DNA of 49,818 bases from Chlamydiae bacterium SM23_39 (GTDB lineage: Bacteria > Chlamydiota > Chlamydiia > Chlamydiales > SM23-39). The notes under the pieces were generated by a model. The model made no database searches. It saw only the letters and a list, made by a program, of their open reading frames with translations, and was not told the origin of the DNA. Of this stretch, positions 3,802 to 14,534 are shown piece by piece. Numbering within the stretch: position 1 is the stretch's first letter; each line of letters starts with the position of its first letter. The position numbers were made by a program, and so were the translations under genes. The stretch lies in the NCBI GenBank assembly GCA_001303765.1, contig LJUH01000001.1, forward strand, positions 1 to 49,818. Direction: 5' to 3'.

Positions 3802-5889
3802 ATGGCAAAAAGAGCAGAAACAGATAAAATAGAAAATGTTAGAAATATTGGGATAATGGCTCATATTGATGCTGGAAAGACAACAGCAACTGAAAGAATA
3901 TTATATTACTCTGGAAAATCTTATAAAATAGGAGAAGTTCATGAGGGTGCTGCCATAATGGATTTTATGGAACAAGAGCAAGAAAGAGGAATAACGATAA
4001 CCTCTGCAGCAACAACTATATATTGGAAAAACCATAAGATAAATATAATAGATACTCCAGGACACGTAGATTTTACAATAGAAGTTGAGAGATCTTTAAG
4101 GGTATTGGATGGTGCAGTTGCAATTTTTTGTGGAGTAGCTGGAGTACAACCACAATCTGAGACAGTATGGAGGCAAGCAGATAGTTATAAAGTTCCAAAA
4201 ATAGCTTTTATAAACAAACTAGATAGAATAGGATCTGATTTTTCCCAAGCTTTACAATCTATGAAAGAAAAATTAAAAGCTAATGCCATAGCTGTGCAAT
4301 GTCCAATAGGTTCCGAAGCAAATTTTAAAGGAGTAGTAGATCTTATCTCTATGAAAGCTCATATATTCAAAGAGGAAACATTAGGTGTAGAATATACAAC
4401 AGAAGAGATCCCTCCAGATTTAATAGAAAAATGTAAAAAAATGAGAATATTACTATTAGAAGAGTTAGCCACAATAGATGAAAAAAATGAAAATTTTTTA
4501 AATAAAGTTTTAGAAGATCCAGATTCAATAACACCTGAAGAGATAGATCCTATAATAAGAAAAGCTGTTTGTGATAATAAACTAAATCCTGTTCTTTGTG
4601 GAAGTGCTTTTAAAAATAAGGGCATACAGCAACTTTTAAATGCTATTATAAAATGGATGCCTTCTCCTTTAGATAGAGGGATTATTAAAGGTATAGATGA
4701 TAAAAATCAAGAGATAGTATTAGAACCAAAAGATGACAGCCCTCTTTCTGCTTTAGCATTCAAAATAATGACAGACCCATATGTTGGGCGTTTAACATTT
4801 TTAAGAATCTATTCAGGAACGTTAGAAAAAGGAAAAACTATAATAAACATATCTAAAGATAAAAAAGAGAGGATTTCTAGACTTTTAGAGATGCATGCAA
4901 ACCAAAGATATGATAGAGATGCTTTTTTTACTGGAGATATAGCAGCATGTATAGGACTTAAATATTCTGCTACAGGAGATTCTCTTTGTTCAGAAAATAC
5001 CCCTATCTTCTTAGAAAAGATGAGATTTCCTGAACCTGTGATCTCTATGGCTATAGAACCAAAATCTAAAGCTGGCAGAGAAAAATTGTCACAAGCCTTA
5101 AGTGCTCTTTCCGAAGAAGATCCCACTTTTAGAATACAAACAAATATAGAGACTGGACAAACAATAATTTCAGGGATGGGAGAGTTGCATTTAGAAATTT
5201 TAAAAGATAGAATGTTAAGAGAATTTAAAGTTGATGCTAATGTAGGAAAACCACAAGTTTCATATAAAGAAACAATAACAACAACAACAAAATCTGAAAC
5301 TAAATTTATAAAACAAACAGGAGGAAGAGGTCAATATGCTCATGTAGTTTTAGAAATAGAACCAAATGAAAGAGGAAAAGGCAATGAAATTATAAATAAA
5401 ATAGTAGGAGGTGTTATTCCTAAAGAATATATCCCCGCCACTATAAAAGGAATAGAAGAGGGATTAGCTACTGGCATTTTAGCAGGATATAATATTATAG
5501 ATACAAAAGTAAAAATAGTATTTGGATCTTATCATGATGTAGATTCTAGTGAAATGGCTTTTAAAATATGTGGTTCTATGGCTATAAAAGAAGCTGCTAA
5601 AAAATGTTCTCCAATACTTTTAGAACCTATAATGATTGTTGTAATTACAACACCTGAAGAATATTTAGGAGATATTATTGGTGATGTCAATAGAAGAAGA
5701 GGTAAAATAATAGGACAAAGCTTAAAAAATAATATATCAACAATAGAGACAGAGGTGCCTATTAGCGAAATGTTCGGATACTCAACTCAACTAAGGTCTC
5801 TATCTTCAGGAAGAGCAATATTTTCTATGGAACCTTCACATTTTGAAAGAGTTCCTTTAAAAATACAAGAAGAAATAATCAAAAAATAA
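3802..5889 (+). CDS. fusA: Elongation factor G
   Basis: 695 aa with [26 protein letters not shown] GTPase motifs and EF-G domains II-V. Confidence 0.98.
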
Positions 5890-9720: not shown

Positions 9721-10422
9721 ATGCAAAGGTTAAGTAAAATTTTAGTATCTAGAGGCATAGCTTCCAGAAGAAAATGTGAAGAGATAATTAAAAACAACAG
9801 AGTAAAAGTAAATAATCAATTAATAACTCTTCCTCAATTTATGGTAGATGAAAAAAAAGATTTAATAGAGTTAGATAATATAAAAATTTCTAAAAAGGAA
9901 AAAAAAGTTTATTACATACTTAATAAGCCAGCAGGATATTTATCAACCAACTGTCCTTATACTAAAAAGAAAAAAGTAATAGACCTCTTCCCCAAAAAAC
10001 CTAGAATATTTACTGTTGGAAGACTAGATAAAAACAGCAAGGGTTTATTAATAATTACAAATGATGGGTATCTTGCTCATAAAATAATGCATCCCTCATC
10101 AAATATAGAAAAGGAATATTTAGTTTATACAGAACAAAAGATAACTTCTAAACATACAAAAATTATATCCAAAGGAATAATTATTAAAAACAGGATTATA
10201 AAACCAGTATCTTTAAAAAAGATCTCTTTTAACAGTGTATCGATAATTGTAAAAGAGGGGAAAAAACATGAGATTAGATTATTTTTAAAAAATGCTAATT
10301 TAAAGGTAAAAGATTTAATAAGAATAAGGATTGGTTTTTTAAAATTAAAAAATTTAAAAGAAGGAGAATATAGAAATATGACTAAAAAGGAAATCGATAA
10401 ATTTTTATTTTTTATTCCATAA
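9721..10422 (+). CDS. rRNA pseudouridine synthase, RsuA/RluB family (S4 domain plus catalytic domain)
   Basis: MQRLSKILVSRGIASRRKCEEII (S4), GRLDKNSKGLLIITNDG (catalytic Asp motif) and KEY.V. Confidence 0.85.
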   Translation: MQRLSKILVSRGIASRRKCEEIIKNNRVKVNNQLITLPQFMVDEKKDLIELDNIKISKKEKKVYYILNKPAGYLSTNCPYTKKKKVIDLFPKKPRIFTVGRLDKNSKGLLIITNDGYLAHKIMHPSSNIEKEYLVYTEQKITSKHTKIISKGIIIKNRIIKPVSLKKISFNSVSIIVKEGKKHEIRLFLKNANLKVKDLIRIRIGFLKLKNLKEGEYRNMTKKEIDKFLFFIP

Positions 10423-10534
10423 AAATAGTTACAATACTATTTTACGTGTACCTAAAACAAATAAGCAGAAAAATAGAAAAAAGTGCTTGGAACATTCAAA
10501 ATCTTTAATTGAAATTTTTTTTCAAATATTTTAA

Positions 10535-10698
10535 AAAAATTTTACAAGAGAAAAATTATTAGCAGAAGCTCATGGAGGCATTTCTTTTTTAGCGAAAGAA
10601 CAGATCTTAATAGAGAAAGTTTGTATGGAACTTTATCATTTCAAGGAAATACTACTATAATTAATCTTTTTCATATGCTTAATAATCTTGGACTATAA
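10535..10698 (+). pseudogene. HigA-family antitoxin (addiction-module antidote, HTH) remnant, frameshifted and without a start codon
   Basis: Two frames together read ...EKLLAEAHGGISFLAKE / TDLNRESLYGTLSFQGNTTIINLFHMLNNLGL*. This matches the C-terminal pattern of HigA-type antitoxins (G.sRE.LYkaLs..GNP....l..vl.aLGL). No partner toxin gene is visible. Confidence 0.45.
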
Positions 10699-10729
10699 TT
10701 AAAAAGGCCTCTGCACGATTAAAGAAATT

Positions 10730-11131
10730 TTATTTATCATCAAAATAAAAAGGATCTATTTCTTTTAGTTCCGGCAATTTATTTAGGTATTCAAATTCTT
10801 TTTTGCCTTTTTCTGTTATATCAAACCAAACCAATTCATACATATACAATTCTCTTCCTAAATTATCCCAATCATATTTTATTTTTTTTAAAATCTCATT
10901 AATGGGTATTTTCCAAGGAATAAACTTATTATCTTTAGTTAAATCTCCTGCTATTACTAATTTTTCTTCTAATAAGTTTTTAATAATTTCTAATGATGTT
11001 TTTTTTATTAATTCTTGATCTTCATAACGATAATATTGTTCAACAAAGCTTGGAACAAAATATAATGAGGTCCAATCTTCAATACAATATGCTAAAATAG
11101 CTGTTTTTGTTTTTTCAAATTTAATATCCAT
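10730..11131 (-). CDS. Candidate immunity protein for the upstream toxin-like protein (133 aa, acidic, no signal peptide)
   Basis: ATG 11131..11129 shares one base with the TGA of the 687-aa gene (TGATG), implying translational coupling. The protein is small and cytosolic-looking, and I recognise no family. Function is inferred from context only. Confidence 0.45.
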   Translation of the reverse strand: MDIKFEKTKTAILAYCIEDWTSLYFVPSFVEQYYRYEDQELIKKTSLEIIKNLLEEKLVIAGDLTKDNKFIPWKIPINEILKKIKYDWDNLGRELYMYELVWFDITEKGKKEFEYLNKLPELKEIDPFYFDDK

Positions 11132-13194
11132 CAATTTTTCTCCAAAAATTTAAGTTTAATATTATCTTTGATATCGGGTAATTTAATATCTATAGTTGGT
11201 GCCCCTGATTTTGATAGAGGTCTAAATCCTATTACCGTTCCATCTTGTAAAAGATACATTTTTCCTGAATATGAATTATCATTTATCAATTTTGCATTTT
11301 TAGTTAATTTATTAAATATTTTTATACTCTCTTTTTGACTTCCTTCAAAAAGGCGAATATATGGTTTAGTCCCAGCTTTTCCAATCCATTTTCCATTGGG
11401 TTTTATTATATTTACAAGGTCACTTTTTGTTGTAATTGAAGAAAAAACTTTAATATTTTTTAATATTCCAGATGAATGAGGCATAATTTTTTCTGCTGTT
11501 TTCCATGCACATACAGTTTCTGCAAAATTACCTGATCCTCCTATTCCAGCTAGAGCTTCTAGAATTACGACTCTTTCAGTTCTTTGTAAGTTCTTAGCAA
11601 GTATTGCAAGTTCTTTAGCACCTTTTATGCCTTTAGAAATTGCCTTAGCTGTAGCTCCTGGTATAAGAATATCAGCTCCATATTTACCGACTATATATCC
11701 TGATCTCTCACCCTTTTCTTTAGGGTATAAAGATTCCCATATATTGATTAACTCACAAACTTCTGGAGCTAATATTTTGCTTAACTCCTTCCATTCTTGA
11801 GAGTAAGCAAGTTTTGCAATATTAGAAAAGGAAACATATATTCCACGTCCTGTATCAACAGGATGAGTTATTGCATTAGCAGCAAATGAAATTAACTGTT
11901 TTCCGGATTCAACAGCACCTTTAGCTATACCAGTTGTTGTTCCTACACTAAAATCAAAACAGTCTACAAAAGTTATAGATTTTTCTGTATTAATTTGATC
12001 TTCCCTTATATAAACTTGGTAGTCATTTAAAGAATGTTCAAACTGTCCATCTTGCAAAAAAGCATAAGCTCTATCTAAATAAATATTGTGATTGTTTGGA
12101 TTGTTTGCAATTGCTTTTCCAAAATTATCTATTGCTTTGTCATAATGTTTATTATTTAAAGCTTGTTCACCTTGAATGCGAAAAAAGTTTTCTTGAAAAT
12201 TCTGATTAGAGTTGTCATTTTTATCCATATATAATGAAGCTTGATTGGTTGCAAAAACATTATCTACTTGTCCATGTCCTTGATTTATTATTTGTTCATA
12301 TGTTTCTAATAAAATATATTTTGGAATATTTTCAATAGCATTATGTGCTAAAGTAGAACCAATAATTCTTTCATTATTTGTTTTAATATAATTTTGATCC
12401 TTTGGATCTGAAATATGAAGGTTATTTTCAACAATAGTATCTTTATATTCAGAAATTTGATCATTAAAAGATTGATATAAAGTAAGATCTTGGGAATTAC
12501 TACTAGAATTTTCTGGAGATGGTATAGGATTAGAGGATAGGTTTTCTTCTTTCTTTGATTTTGAAGTGCAAGACTCAGGAGTAGTGGCTTCAGCTGCTTT
12601 AGTAGATTTTGCTATAGCAATTGTAGCTACTACTGCAATAGTACCCACAACTAAAGCTGATCCTATTATAAAAGCTTTCTTGTGCTTTTTTATATATTTT
12701 CTTACTTTTTTGAACTTCTTTTTAAACCAATTCTTACAAAGAATAATATCATATTGTCTATAGTAAACAGCTGGTATAATTTGATAATCACCAGTTCTAT
12801 AAGATGAATTTTCAAACGTAGCATCATCTTCATATGGACTTAAAAGTTCTTGAATATCTCTTTCTAATTCAGCTTTTTCTTCTTCTGTTGCATTTGAAAG
12901 TGTTCCACTTCTTGCTAAAAGAGCTAAAAAATAACTTATTTCATACAAATCTTGTTCTGTACAAACATCTTCTAATAGACCATTTTCTAATTCTTCAAGA
13001 AGCTTAATAACCAAATCATATACAAGAAGACCGTCTTCATTATAGAGTTGCTTCATAATATTCCCTTTATTAGCAAAATAAGATTGAGATTGAGTAGCTG
13101 ATGGATAAATTGGTGTTGATGCTATAAGAAAAGATACATTAGTAAAAATTAAGAAAAAGACAAAAAGCTTTGATTTTTTTAAAAGTTTTACCAT
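11131..13194 (-). CDS. Large secreted/membrane-anchored protein with polymorphic-toxin-like architecture
   Basis: 687 aa. The parts are: N-terminal signal-like segment, a lysine-rich stretch plus one TM helix (AFIIGSALVVGTIAVVATIAIA), a low-complexity S/N linker, a TPR-like unit (GEQALNNKHYDKAIDNFGKAIANNPNNHNIYLDRAYAFLQDGQFEHSLNDY), a helical segment with ILIPGATAKAISKG (pre-toxin-TG-like), and a distinct C-terminal module of about 110 aa ending YLLQDGTVIGFRPLSKSGAPTIDIKLP. Confidence 0.5.
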   Translation of the reverse strand: MVKLLKKSKLFVFFLIFTNVSFLIASTPIYPSATQSQSYFANKGNIMKQLYNEDGLLVYDLVIKLLEELENGLLEDVCTEQDLYEISYFLALLARSGTLSNATEEEKAELERDIQELLSPYEDDATFENSSYRTGDYQIIPAVYYRQYDIILCKNWFKKKFKKVRKYIKKHKKAFIIGSALVVGTIAVVATIAIAKSTKAAEATTPESCTSKSKKEENLSSNPIPSPENSSSNSQDLTLYQSFNDQISEYKDTIVENNLHISDPKDQNYIKTNNERIIGSTLAHNAIENIPKYILLETYEQIINQGHGQVDNVFATNQASLYMDKNDNSNQNFQENFFRIQGEQALNNKHYDKAIDNFGKAIANNPNNHNIYLDRAYAFLQDGQFEHSLNDYQVYIREDQINTEKSITFVDCFDFSVGTTTGIAKGAVESGKQLISFAANAITHPVDTGRGIYVSFSNIAKLAYSQEWKELSKILAPEVCELINIWESLYPKEKGERSGYIVGKYGADILIPGATAKAISKGIKGAKELAILAKNLQRTERVVILEALAGIGGSGNFAETVCAWKTAEKIMPHSSGILKNIKVFSSITTKSDLVNIIKPNGKWIGKAGTKPYIRLFEGSQKESIKIFNKLTKNAKLINDNSYSGKMYLLQDGTVIGFRPLSKSGAPTIDIKLPDIKDNIKLKFLEKN

Positions 13195-13695: not shown

Positions 13696-14534
13696 ATGAA
13701 AAACAATTCTACTGATAGTTCTCTTATTTTATATCAGACAGAAGATGGTCAAACTAAGATAGAAATTCATCTTATTGATAAAACTGTTTGGCTTTCTCAA
13801 GATCAAATGGCTGAGTTCTTTGATAAAGATAAAAGAACTATTTCTGAACATATTAGAAATATTTTTAAAGAAAGAGAACTTCTTGAAAAATCAGTTGTCC
13901 GGAATTTCCGGACAACTGCATCGGATAGCAAAAATTATGAGGTATTACATTACAATTTAGATGTTATTATTTCAGTAGGATATCGAGTAAAATCTCATAG
14001 AGGTACGCAATTTCGTATATGGGCAACTGCTAGATTAAAAGAGTTTCTTATAAAAGGCTTTGTTTTAGATGATCAAAAGTTGAAACGTTTAGGTGGAGAC
14101 AGCTATTTTGAAGAACTTCTTTCTCGTATACGAGATATTCGTTCATCTGAAAAAGTATTTTGGCGTAAAGTGCTTGATATCTATGCTACTAGTATTGATT
14201 ATGATCCTTCTGCAGAAACATCTGTGGAAATTGCAAAAAATTATTTAAGTGCTGATGAATTAAATATTCCAAATCGCCTTGTTTCAATATATTTAGATTT
14301 TGCAGAGCTTCAAGCTTTAGATCATAAACCAATGTATATGAAAAATTGGATGATTTTTTAAAAATGACTGATAAGAAAATTTTATCACATTTAGGAAAAG
14401 TTAGTCATGATAAAGCTTTAAAAAAAACTCGAGAGGAATTTTTAAAATATAAAAGTAAAATGATTGAAAATTCTTTTCCTCCTGTGGAAAAGCATTTTTT
14501 AAAGGCAGTAAAAGAAATAGAAAAATTACATTAA
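13696..14534 (+). pseudogene. rhuM: RhuM-family protein gene carrying an internal deletion and a frameshift
   Basis: The N-terminal two thirds are classic RhuM (LYQTEDGQTKIEIHL..TVWLSQDQMAEFF...NYEVLHYNLDVIISVGYRVKSHRGTQFRIWAT...SSEKVFWRKVLDIYATSIDYD). About 50 residues that normally separate the DIYATSIDYD... region from ...AKNYL are missing. The frame breaks near 14335..14348, and the C-terminus (LDDFLKMTDKKILSHLGKVSHDKAL...PVEKHFL) continues in another frame (14346..14534). Confidence 0.75.

Follow-up and report, generated by a model that had tools for sequence, protein, structure and literature searches.

The window analysed here is a stretch of 49,818 nucleotides from contig LJUH01000001.1 of Chlamydiae bacterium SM23_39, a metagenome-assembled genome (MAG), and the subject of this report is a pair of overlapping genes on its reverse strand. 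The first, at 11131..13194 (-), encodes a protein of 687 aa (AMS24_00075). The second is an open reading frame (ORF) at 10730..11134 (-), which encodes a protein of 133 aa (AMS24_00070) if the ATG at 11131..11129 is its start, and one of 134 aa if translation begins at the preceding TTG codon. Base 11131 is common to the TGA of the large gene (11133..11131) and the ATG of the small one, giving the sequence TGATG at 11129..11133, exactly where an earlier note on this DNA had placed it. A GGAG motif resembling a Shine-Dalgarno sequence can be read at 11140..11143 (-), 8 nt before the small gene's ATG and within the last codons of the large gene. We conclude that this pair very probably consists of a polymorphic toxin and its cognate immunity gene, built on a scaffold that appears to be specific to Chlamydiota. 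The C-terminal module of the 687-aa protein is called toxA below, and the small gene, which encodes the candidate cognate immunity protein (10730..11131 (-), its ATG overlapping the toxin TGA), is called immA.

The 687-aa protein is modular, and every module listed in the earlier note was found again. It begins with a segment that resembles a signal peptide by inspection (aa 1-26, 13117..13194 (-); MVKLLKKSK, a hydrophobic core and IAS|TP), with a net charge of +4 and a grand average of hydropathy (GRAVY) of 1.39. The full-length homologues keep this pattern, with ends of the (V/I/T)-A-S|E type, as judged by eye from their alignment (A5). An acidic N-terminal domain follows (aa 27-150, 12745..13116 (-); isoelectric point (pI) 4.1), which is conserved across the same homologues, was described as helical in the earlier note and has no match in Pfam, NCBIfam or PDB. 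Composition and alignment then mark out Cys153 with a polybasic stretch (aa 151-173, net charge +12) and a single hydrophobic helix (aa 174-196, GRAVY 2.17), together at 12607..12744 (-), where C153, W156 and K159 are invariant or nearly so. Inspection and alignment place next a low-complexity Ser/Asn/Pro linker, the first part of which is Ala/Ser-rich and variable in homologues, and a conserved segment (together aa 197-330, 12205..12606 (-)). The TPR-like region (aa 331-405, 11980..12204 (-)) is recognised by weak Pfam matches at aa 335-405; those to TPR_2, TPR_11 and TPR_16 range from E 5.8e-5 (TPR_2) to 5e-4 and all lie below the Pfam gathering cut-offs. TPR proteins in the PDB match the 687-aa protein at E 8e-5 or weaker, and homologues carry precomputed TPR hits.

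The last shared module is a family-specific pre-toxin region of ~140 aa (aa 414-554, 11533..11955 (-)), which runs from GERSGYIVGKYGADILIPGATAKAISKG to LEALAGIGG, contains ILIPGATAKAISKG at aa 509-522 and is recognised at E 1.2e-71 by a profile built from alignment A5. All chlamydial loci have this region, and the orphan cassettes described below retain a shortened form of it. The PT-TG domain, which had been offered as an example of such a region, is not what is found here: PF14449 gave no match at E<=1 in the window protein or its homologues. Pfam likewise detected no RHS/YD or filamentous-haemagglutinin repeats in the window protein, and for both window proteins Pfam and NCBIfam returned only the sub-threshold TPR matches. 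The variable C-terminus, delimited by AlphaFold modelling and profile search, consists of a linker (aa 555-571) and toxA (aa 572-687), together at 11134..11532 (-).

Evidence for a polymorphic toxin comes from the exchange of these C-termini between homologues. The last 228 residues of the query retrieved 22 proteins, the named ones from chlamydial MAGs and the others unnamed metagenome proteins; all share GEKSGYIxGKYGADILIPGAxAKAISxGxKGAKELxxIAKNLQxTExxxxLEALAETGG and then continue into unrelated tails (alignment A1). The first 458 residues retrieved 22 proteins, mostly full-length or nearly so, and overall ~40 homologues were found, from Chlamydiota MAGs or metagenomes. In an alignment of 17 full-length homologues, similarity extends over ~555 residues and vanishes entirely after LEALAxxGG. 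The tails beyond this junction are 100-175 residues long and belong to at least seven unrelated types across the loci, which is the pattern of one N-terminal region carrying different C-termini that the earlier note had proposed to look for. The genome of the window itself holds an example: a paralogue on another contig of the same MAG (AMS24_03795, P0092) is 83% identical in its N-terminal region and has a different tail. That type C tail is ~33 residues shorter than the one at locus L005 and lacks the conserved AKHGGR motif (…TKAGRAL|NDPKK…), and P0092 is possibly an inactivated toxin, to judge from this truncation.

A scan of one genome per species gave 24 loci, all in MAGs and none in a cultured chlamydia. 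Their labels are mostly Chlamydiae, Chlamydiales, Anoxychlamydiales, Parachlamydiales and Rhabdochlamydiaceae, with four given as 'uncultured bacterium' and one as Verrucomicrobia. The contig labelled 'Verrucomicrobia bacterium SZAS-15' (L026, JAFEGJ010000005.1) carries the chlamydial scaffold with an Ntox50 tail; either this contig is chlamydial and was mislabelled or mis-binned, or the scaffold is present outside Chlamydiota. Variant scaffolds were also seen: in P0019 (387 aa), P0020 (193 aa), P0119 and P0123 the type A toxin occurs without the pre-toxin region and is joined directly to the N-terminal domain, or to the polybasic/transmembrane (TM) segment with a different linker.

For ~30 loci, the stretch following the match to the pre-toxin profile was taken together with the ORF behind it, and each tail type was found with its own downstream ORF family, in strict covariation. 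Tail A, that of the window (IRLFEGG ... SKSGPPTIDIK), is followed by the 133-aa family; tail C (TKAGRALAKHGGR) by a family of 73-86 aa; tail E (...AHIPLEEF) by one of 99-126 aa; tail F (KEIQKG...NPxKY) by one of 79-80 aa or a tandem version of 177-179 aa; and tail G (PHxxPHxHxE) by one of 80-82 aa. Two further tails match Pfam families: tail H is Ntox50 (PF15542, E 6.4e-25), followed by a family of 94-109 aa, and tail D is DUF4258 (PF14076, 30.5 bits against a cut-off of 25), followed by an 84-aa ORF. By these matches, two of the tails that sister proteins carry at the position of toxA are toxin domains known to Pfam. The distance from toxin stop to next start ranges from -23 to +59 nt and is mostly between -16 and +11 nt. 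The 177-179-aa form of the type F immunity gene is an internal tandem duplication, observed in L025 (Parachlamydiales; start 7058..), L022 (uncultured Chlamydiae; 6661..) and L023 (uncultured bacterium; 7103..).

Related loci contain silent orphan cassettes farther downstream. On a 2.07-Mb chlamydial contig (L003), a full-length gene and its 79-aa partner are followed by two 5'-truncated cassettes, in each of which a fragment of the pre-toxin region leads into a type E tail and is accompanied by a partner of 122 or 123 aa. The orphans are 95.7% identical to the main gene in DNA sequence over 423 bp and 94.7% identical over 190 bp, and this identity ends at the junction; such near-identical pre-toxin DNA would serve as a substrate for tail swapping by homologous recombination. 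L004 holds a similar array, in which two type A remnants each have a gene of the 133-aa family behind them. Tails exchanged at a fixed junction, a downstream gene that covaries with them and orphan cassettes (L003, L004) are all features by which polymorphic toxins are recognised, and together with the shared ~555-aa scaffold they support the earlier proposal that the pair follows the toxin-plus-immunity grammar of these systems. A set of 'long' immA proteins (204-232 aa; L010 2260..2877, P0028, P0040, P0056, P0057, P0074, P0077, P0078, P0084, L063 and L083) join the immunity domain, in frame, to a degenerate piece of a type A toxin C-terminus; they are followed by another immA gene and look like decayed orphan cassettes that are read through.

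Beyond the chlamydial scaffold, toxA proved to be a large family of its own. An exhaustive profile search gave 464 representative clusters at E<=1e-3, and the domain ends at most 10 residues from the C-terminus in 138 of 146 representatives. Its carriers include RHS proteins (six, up to 3092 aa), Fil_haemagg proteins (two) and one phage portal protein, and the chlamydial scaffold is found in only a handful of the top representatives. The motif G..I.(F/L)R..S.SG.PTI.I, which the earlier note linked to small C-terminal toxin modules, is real, and it defines this 464-cluster family at the extreme C-terminus of such proteins. Conserved family-wide (alignment A6) are PxGxxIGxxG, R614, G618, L630, R658, S661 and G664, and nearly invariant are S663, P666, T667, I668, D669 and K682. 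The phage portal protein (P0167, 582 aa; PF04860, E 1e-84) has toxA at its C-terminus, which suggests phage-borne delivery or carriage. By eye, L037 shows a Hint-like '...VHNSC' motif and L038 one that resembles an RHS core; Pfam gave no confirmation of either and they were not used.

AlphaFold modelled a 159-aa query with a mean predicted local distance difference test (pLDDT) score of 83, with blocks at 86-96 from query residue 41 onward (aa 569 on). The predicted order of a strand, a helix and five strands, together with conserved Arg, Ser, Thr and Lys and no His, is compatible with a RelE- or colicin E5-like enzyme of the BECR fold (barnase/EndoU/colicin E5-D/RelE RNase toxins), for which Foldseek gave no match. 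The nucleotidyltransferase and PTP matches that Foldseek returned for the model were discarded as noise (root-mean-square deviation 8.5-19 Å, probability <=0.10). Ntox7 and Ntox20, the latter with Imm-NMB0513 as its partner, were weighed as names for the family; the Ntox7 motif (DGx+xhR) does not fit.

The product of immA in the window is acidic (pI 4.9) and its N-terminus is not hydrophobic by inspection, which bears out its description in the earlier note as an acidic protein without a signal. It has 68 chlamydial homologues. Conserved throughout the immA family are D19, L23, W73, I84, W88 and F103, W73 and W88 being invariant and W102 nearly so. AlphaFold predicts a winged-helix-like structure (pLDDT 92.5), and Foldseek found only a generic winged-helix resemblance to PadR/MarR proteins and PDB entry 2o5h (E 0.08-0.15, TM-score ~0.5; none at E<0.001). 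No Pfam family for immA or toxA emerged among the 68 chlamydial immA proteins, the non-chlamydial immA proteins and the toxA carriers. Membership of DUF596 (Imm-NMB0513) was tried and rejected: this family is not among the 25 most-matched Pfam families for the 68 chlamydial members at E<=1, five non-chlamydial immA proteins gave no match to it at E<=0.1, and profiles A3 and A8 miss 2o5h at E<=10.

The pairing of immA with toxA holds outside Chlamydiota too. A metagenome scan with the toxA alignment gave 52 further loci. On contigs of 55-70% GC that lack the chlamydial scaffold, an ORF of ~105-130 aa comes after toxA at a distance of -25..+11 nt, and the chlamydial immA profile matches these high-GC ORFs at E 1e-7 to 2e-22. 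In 44 of the 57 loci that could be assessed, the ORF immediately behind toxA is of the immA type, which, with the separate ORF family behind each tail type, answers affirmatively the earlier question of whether the downstream ORF is conserved. Charge complementarity is also seen: the window's toxA module is basic (pI 10.0), the median pI of toxA is 9.4-9.8, and that of immA was 4.3-5.7 in 20 of 20 proteins examined. Judged by this distribution, toxA and immA form a widespread putative toxin/immunity pair, which elsewhere tips RHS, CdiA-type and phage-portal proteins. Nine of the 57 are divergent toxA termini (L052, L068, L069, L074, L075, L077, L079, L081 and L082), some on RHS or Fil_haemagg carriers. 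These are followed by a different ORF of 176-199 aa; its members are similar to one another (…ISHE(E/N)HA(V/L)…GG…), have no Pfam matches and presumably constitute a second immunity family.

Contrary to the earlier claim, the surroundings of the pair are not pseudogenised: ORFs of >=100 aa account for 90% of the window, and the neighbouring genes are intact, among them those for FtsW/RodA, a lipoate ligase, a mutase of the histidine-phosphatase/phosphoglycerate-mutase type, a pseudouridine synthase, NUDIX, UGPase and GH3. Near the locus a single gene was seen to be broken, a RhuM-family virulence gene (13696..14534 (+)), which adjoins the toxin gene upstream in divergent orientation and is split into ORFs of 221 and 62 aa (PF13310 positions 1-115 and 210-248), probably by a frameshift that makes it a pseudogene or by an assembly error. 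In a related Anoxychlamydiales contig (L001), genes for a Fic-domain protein and an AAA_14/DUF4143 protein (10014..10892 and 4181..5494) are found close to the toxin/immunity pair; these and the RhuM gene of the window suggest a variable accessory region. Scans for promoters and terminators gave no signal above chance, and a repeat scan found no flanking repeats and no boundaries of mobile elements or islands. The impression that both genes use fewer homopolymer runs than the core genes holds only for the toxin gene, which has 4.4 runs of >=6 nt per kb against a median of 10.6 per kb in the other large ORFs (range 0-24). It is not distinctive, and the small gene, at 9.9 per kb, lies near the median, so the argument drawn from it is weak.

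We propose that the 687-aa protein would be exported by the Sec pathway, given its conserved signal-peptide-like N-terminus, and that its polybasic/TM module may anchor it in a membrane, insert into one, or take part in crossing that of the target. The C-terminal domain would be released or passed into an adjacent cell, in the likeliest case another chlamydia, and toxA would attack a target in the cytoplasm of that cell, probably RNA or some other nucleic acid. This guess at the target is prompted by the small α+β build of toxA with its conserved Arg, Ser, Thr and Lys, by its lack of His or of an acidic metal-binding cluster, by its mostly basic charge opposite a uniformly acidic partner, and by the RNase-type domains among the sister tails. 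The immA protein may be produced by translational coupling, through the TGATG overlap and the GGAG 8 nt upstream. As an acidic winged-helix protein it would bind the basic toxin domain one-to-one, and the producer and its kin would be protected because of this binding.

Several observations weigh against this reading. No member of the toxA or immA family has been characterised. Sequence searches of Pfam, NCBIfam and PDB with toxA (single protein and profile A2) and Foldseek searches of PDB and BFVD at E<0.001 gave no match, and neither NCBIfam nor PDB sequence searches with profiles A3 and A8 gave a relative of immA. The toxicity and RNase activity of toxA are accordingly putative. The 687-aa protein has no known trafficking domain (RHS, FHA, LXG, PAAR or MafB-N). 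Its topology is puzzling as well: the positive flank of the TM helix lies on the N-terminal side, after a cleavable signal peptide, so that cleavage of the latter would either leave the toxin cytoplasmic or require that the positive-inside rule be broken. Some toxA homologues are acidic (pI 4.1-6.7), and a tblastn search of the window with all tail types and immA found no orphan cassettes there.

It is unlikely, though worth weighing, that the protein is a host-directed effector which leaves the cell by a route such as type III secretion or vesicles, inserts its polybasic/TM module in the host or inclusion membrane and attacks host RNA with its C-terminus, while the small protein guards the producer before export. 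TPR is a common effector module, a juxtamembrane Cys next to a polybasic stretch resembles eukaryotic membrane-targeting signals as generally known, and RNase-type toxins such as Ntox50 would kill eukaryotic cells too. Chlamydiae are moreover typically host-associated, and marine-sediment MAGs encode a non-flagellar type III secretion system (NF-T3SS; Dharamshi et al., bioRxiv 10.1101/577767). However, host-directed toxins of intracellular bacteria typically come without immunity genes (Zhang et al. 2012, PMC3482391), whereas immunity genes, orphan cassettes and polymorphism are all found in the scaffold family. RHS and CdiA-type proteins of non-chlamydial bacteria use the same toxA/immA pair, and the conserved N-terminus looks by inspection like a Sec-type signal peptide, with no obvious type III secretion signal. 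Host-directed and interbacterial roles are not mutually exclusive.

An addiction module of the toxin-antitoxin kind, stabilising itself or a genomic islet with a toxin that is never exported, is very improbable. Its tight translational coupling and the hint of an accessory region given by the neighbouring RhuM gene would fit, and a TM helix acting as stop-transfer after a cleaved signal peptide would keep the toxin domain in the cytoplasm. But toxin-antitoxin toxins are small, stand-alone proteins, which sets them apart from the carrier found here and leaves the pair outside the type II definition: toxA forms the end of a 687-aa carrier, and the signal-peptide-like start, TM helix and TPR of that carrier are conserved across Chlamydiota. 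It is competition systems that characteristically show orphan cassettes and exchanged C-termini, and no flanking repeats or mobile-element boundaries set off an islet. Scarcely any credence is due to the idea that there is no toxin at all, the large protein being a membrane or surface protein with a variable binding or antigenic C-terminus and the downstream gene encoding its dedicated chaperone. The absence of an enzymatic motif or known fold in toxA would allow for it; the bona fide toxin domains at the same position in sister proteins speak against it, as does the fact that in RHS and CdiA-type proteins toxA occupies the terminal position of a toxin. The polymorphic toxin with a cognate immunity protein is the reading that we retain.

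A swappable toxin and its antidote on a chlamydial scaffold would suggest that these bacteria fight each other directly. A broader proposition, on which we are evenly divided, is that uncultured chlamydiae (Anoxychlamydiales, Parachlamydiales and Rhabdochlamydiaceae) inject swappable toxins into rival chlamydiae by means of an undescribed, lineage-specific scaffold, and that the toxin and immunity domains represent two new, widespread families with a fold not in the PDB. If true, it would imply that cells antagonise one another and discriminate kin in a phylum held to be obligately intracellular. Antagonism between chlamydial strains would become testable, whether in a shared host cell or outside the host, and the domain pair, with 464 toxin clusters and no relative in Pfam, NCBIfam or PDB, offers obvious targets for structural and biochemical work. 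The premise of an obligately intracellular lineage, on which the earlier note had called such a pair unusual, is uncertain here, since Anoxychlamydiales are suspected not to be obligately intracellular (Stairs et al. 2020, PMC7449678). Bacterium-to-bacterium antagonism would then be less surprising in this lineage, and our findings bear in turn on that suspicion; the scaffold family also occurs in Parachlamydiales and Rhabdochlamydiaceae MAGs.

Earlier work on chlamydiae touches on this subject only in part. Zhang et al. 2012 (PMC3482391) reported domains of polymorphic-toxin type in Chlamydiae, some of them on TPR, ankyrin or Sel1 repeat proteins, and found that intracellular bacteria hold toxin domains with hardly any immunity genes, from which they concluded that conspecific competition is absent, Odyssella excepted. 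The toxin-like effectors of Waddlia, Parachlamydia, Protochlamydia and Amoebophilus were accordingly reported without immunity genes and read as host-directed (PMC3482391). In contrast to those effectors, the chlamydial scaffold family has immunity genes, covariation of tail and immunity gene, and orphan cassettes; against the conclusion of Zhang et al., a complete competition-type set of polymorphic tips, candidate cognate immunity genes and orphan cassettes is present across several chlamydial orders. Among the later chlamydial papers searched, none describes such a system: Köstlbacher et al. 2021 make no mention of toxin, immunity, Rhs or contact-dependent systems, neither Stairs et al. 2020 nor Dharamshi et al. 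2019 mention toxins, and König et al. 2019 go no further than to cite Zhang on 'classical polymorphic toxin domains' in Protochlamydia.

One of the closest known systems is MafB/MafI of Neisseria, with its Sec signal peptide, lineage-specific N-terminal domain, polymorphic C-terminus, downstream immunity gene and orphan cassettes. The MafI-type protein NMB0513, of which 2o5h is the structure and which is the prototype of the Imm-NMB0513 immunity family (Zhang et al., PMC3482391), is a winged helix with conserved Trp residues and is among the best, non-significant structural matches of immA (TM-score 0.50, E 0.15). There is, however, no sequence relation to MafB-N (DUF1020) or DUF596, and MafB lacks the TM helix and TPR. 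A different comparison is offered by the membrane segment. Type VI secretion system prePAAR effectors such as Tse6 carry N-terminal TM helices, and the hydrophobic helix of the chlamydial carrier may similarly serve in crossing the target membrane; unlike these effectors, the carrier has no PAAR domain, shows no sign of association with type VI secretion and begins with a sequence resembling a Sec signal peptide.

More generally, the family described here resembles the polymorphic toxin systems defined by Zhang, de Souza, Anantharaman, Iyer & Aravind 2012 (PMC3482391), such as Rhs, CdiA, MafB and LXG with their orphan CT/immunity cassettes. Common to both are sequence conservation from the N-terminus through the central part, a pre-toxin region that marks the boundary, hypervariable toxin C-termini, an immunity gene immediately downstream and orphan cassettes that keep homology for recombination, and the toxin domains themselves are shared: Ntox50, DUF4258 and the unnamed toxA, which is found on RHS and FHA proteins. 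Unlike those systems, the chlamydial scaffold contains no RHS, Fil_haemagg, LXG/WXG, PAAR, MafB-N, PT-TG, PT-HINT or VENN domain, and has instead its own arrangement of a signal-peptide-like start, an acidic domain, a polybasic/TM module, TPR and a new pre-toxin region of ~140 aa. As far as sequence comparison can tell, the kind of system is known, that of the polymorphic toxins, and what is new is the Chlamydiota-specific architecture of the carrier together with its pre-toxin region.

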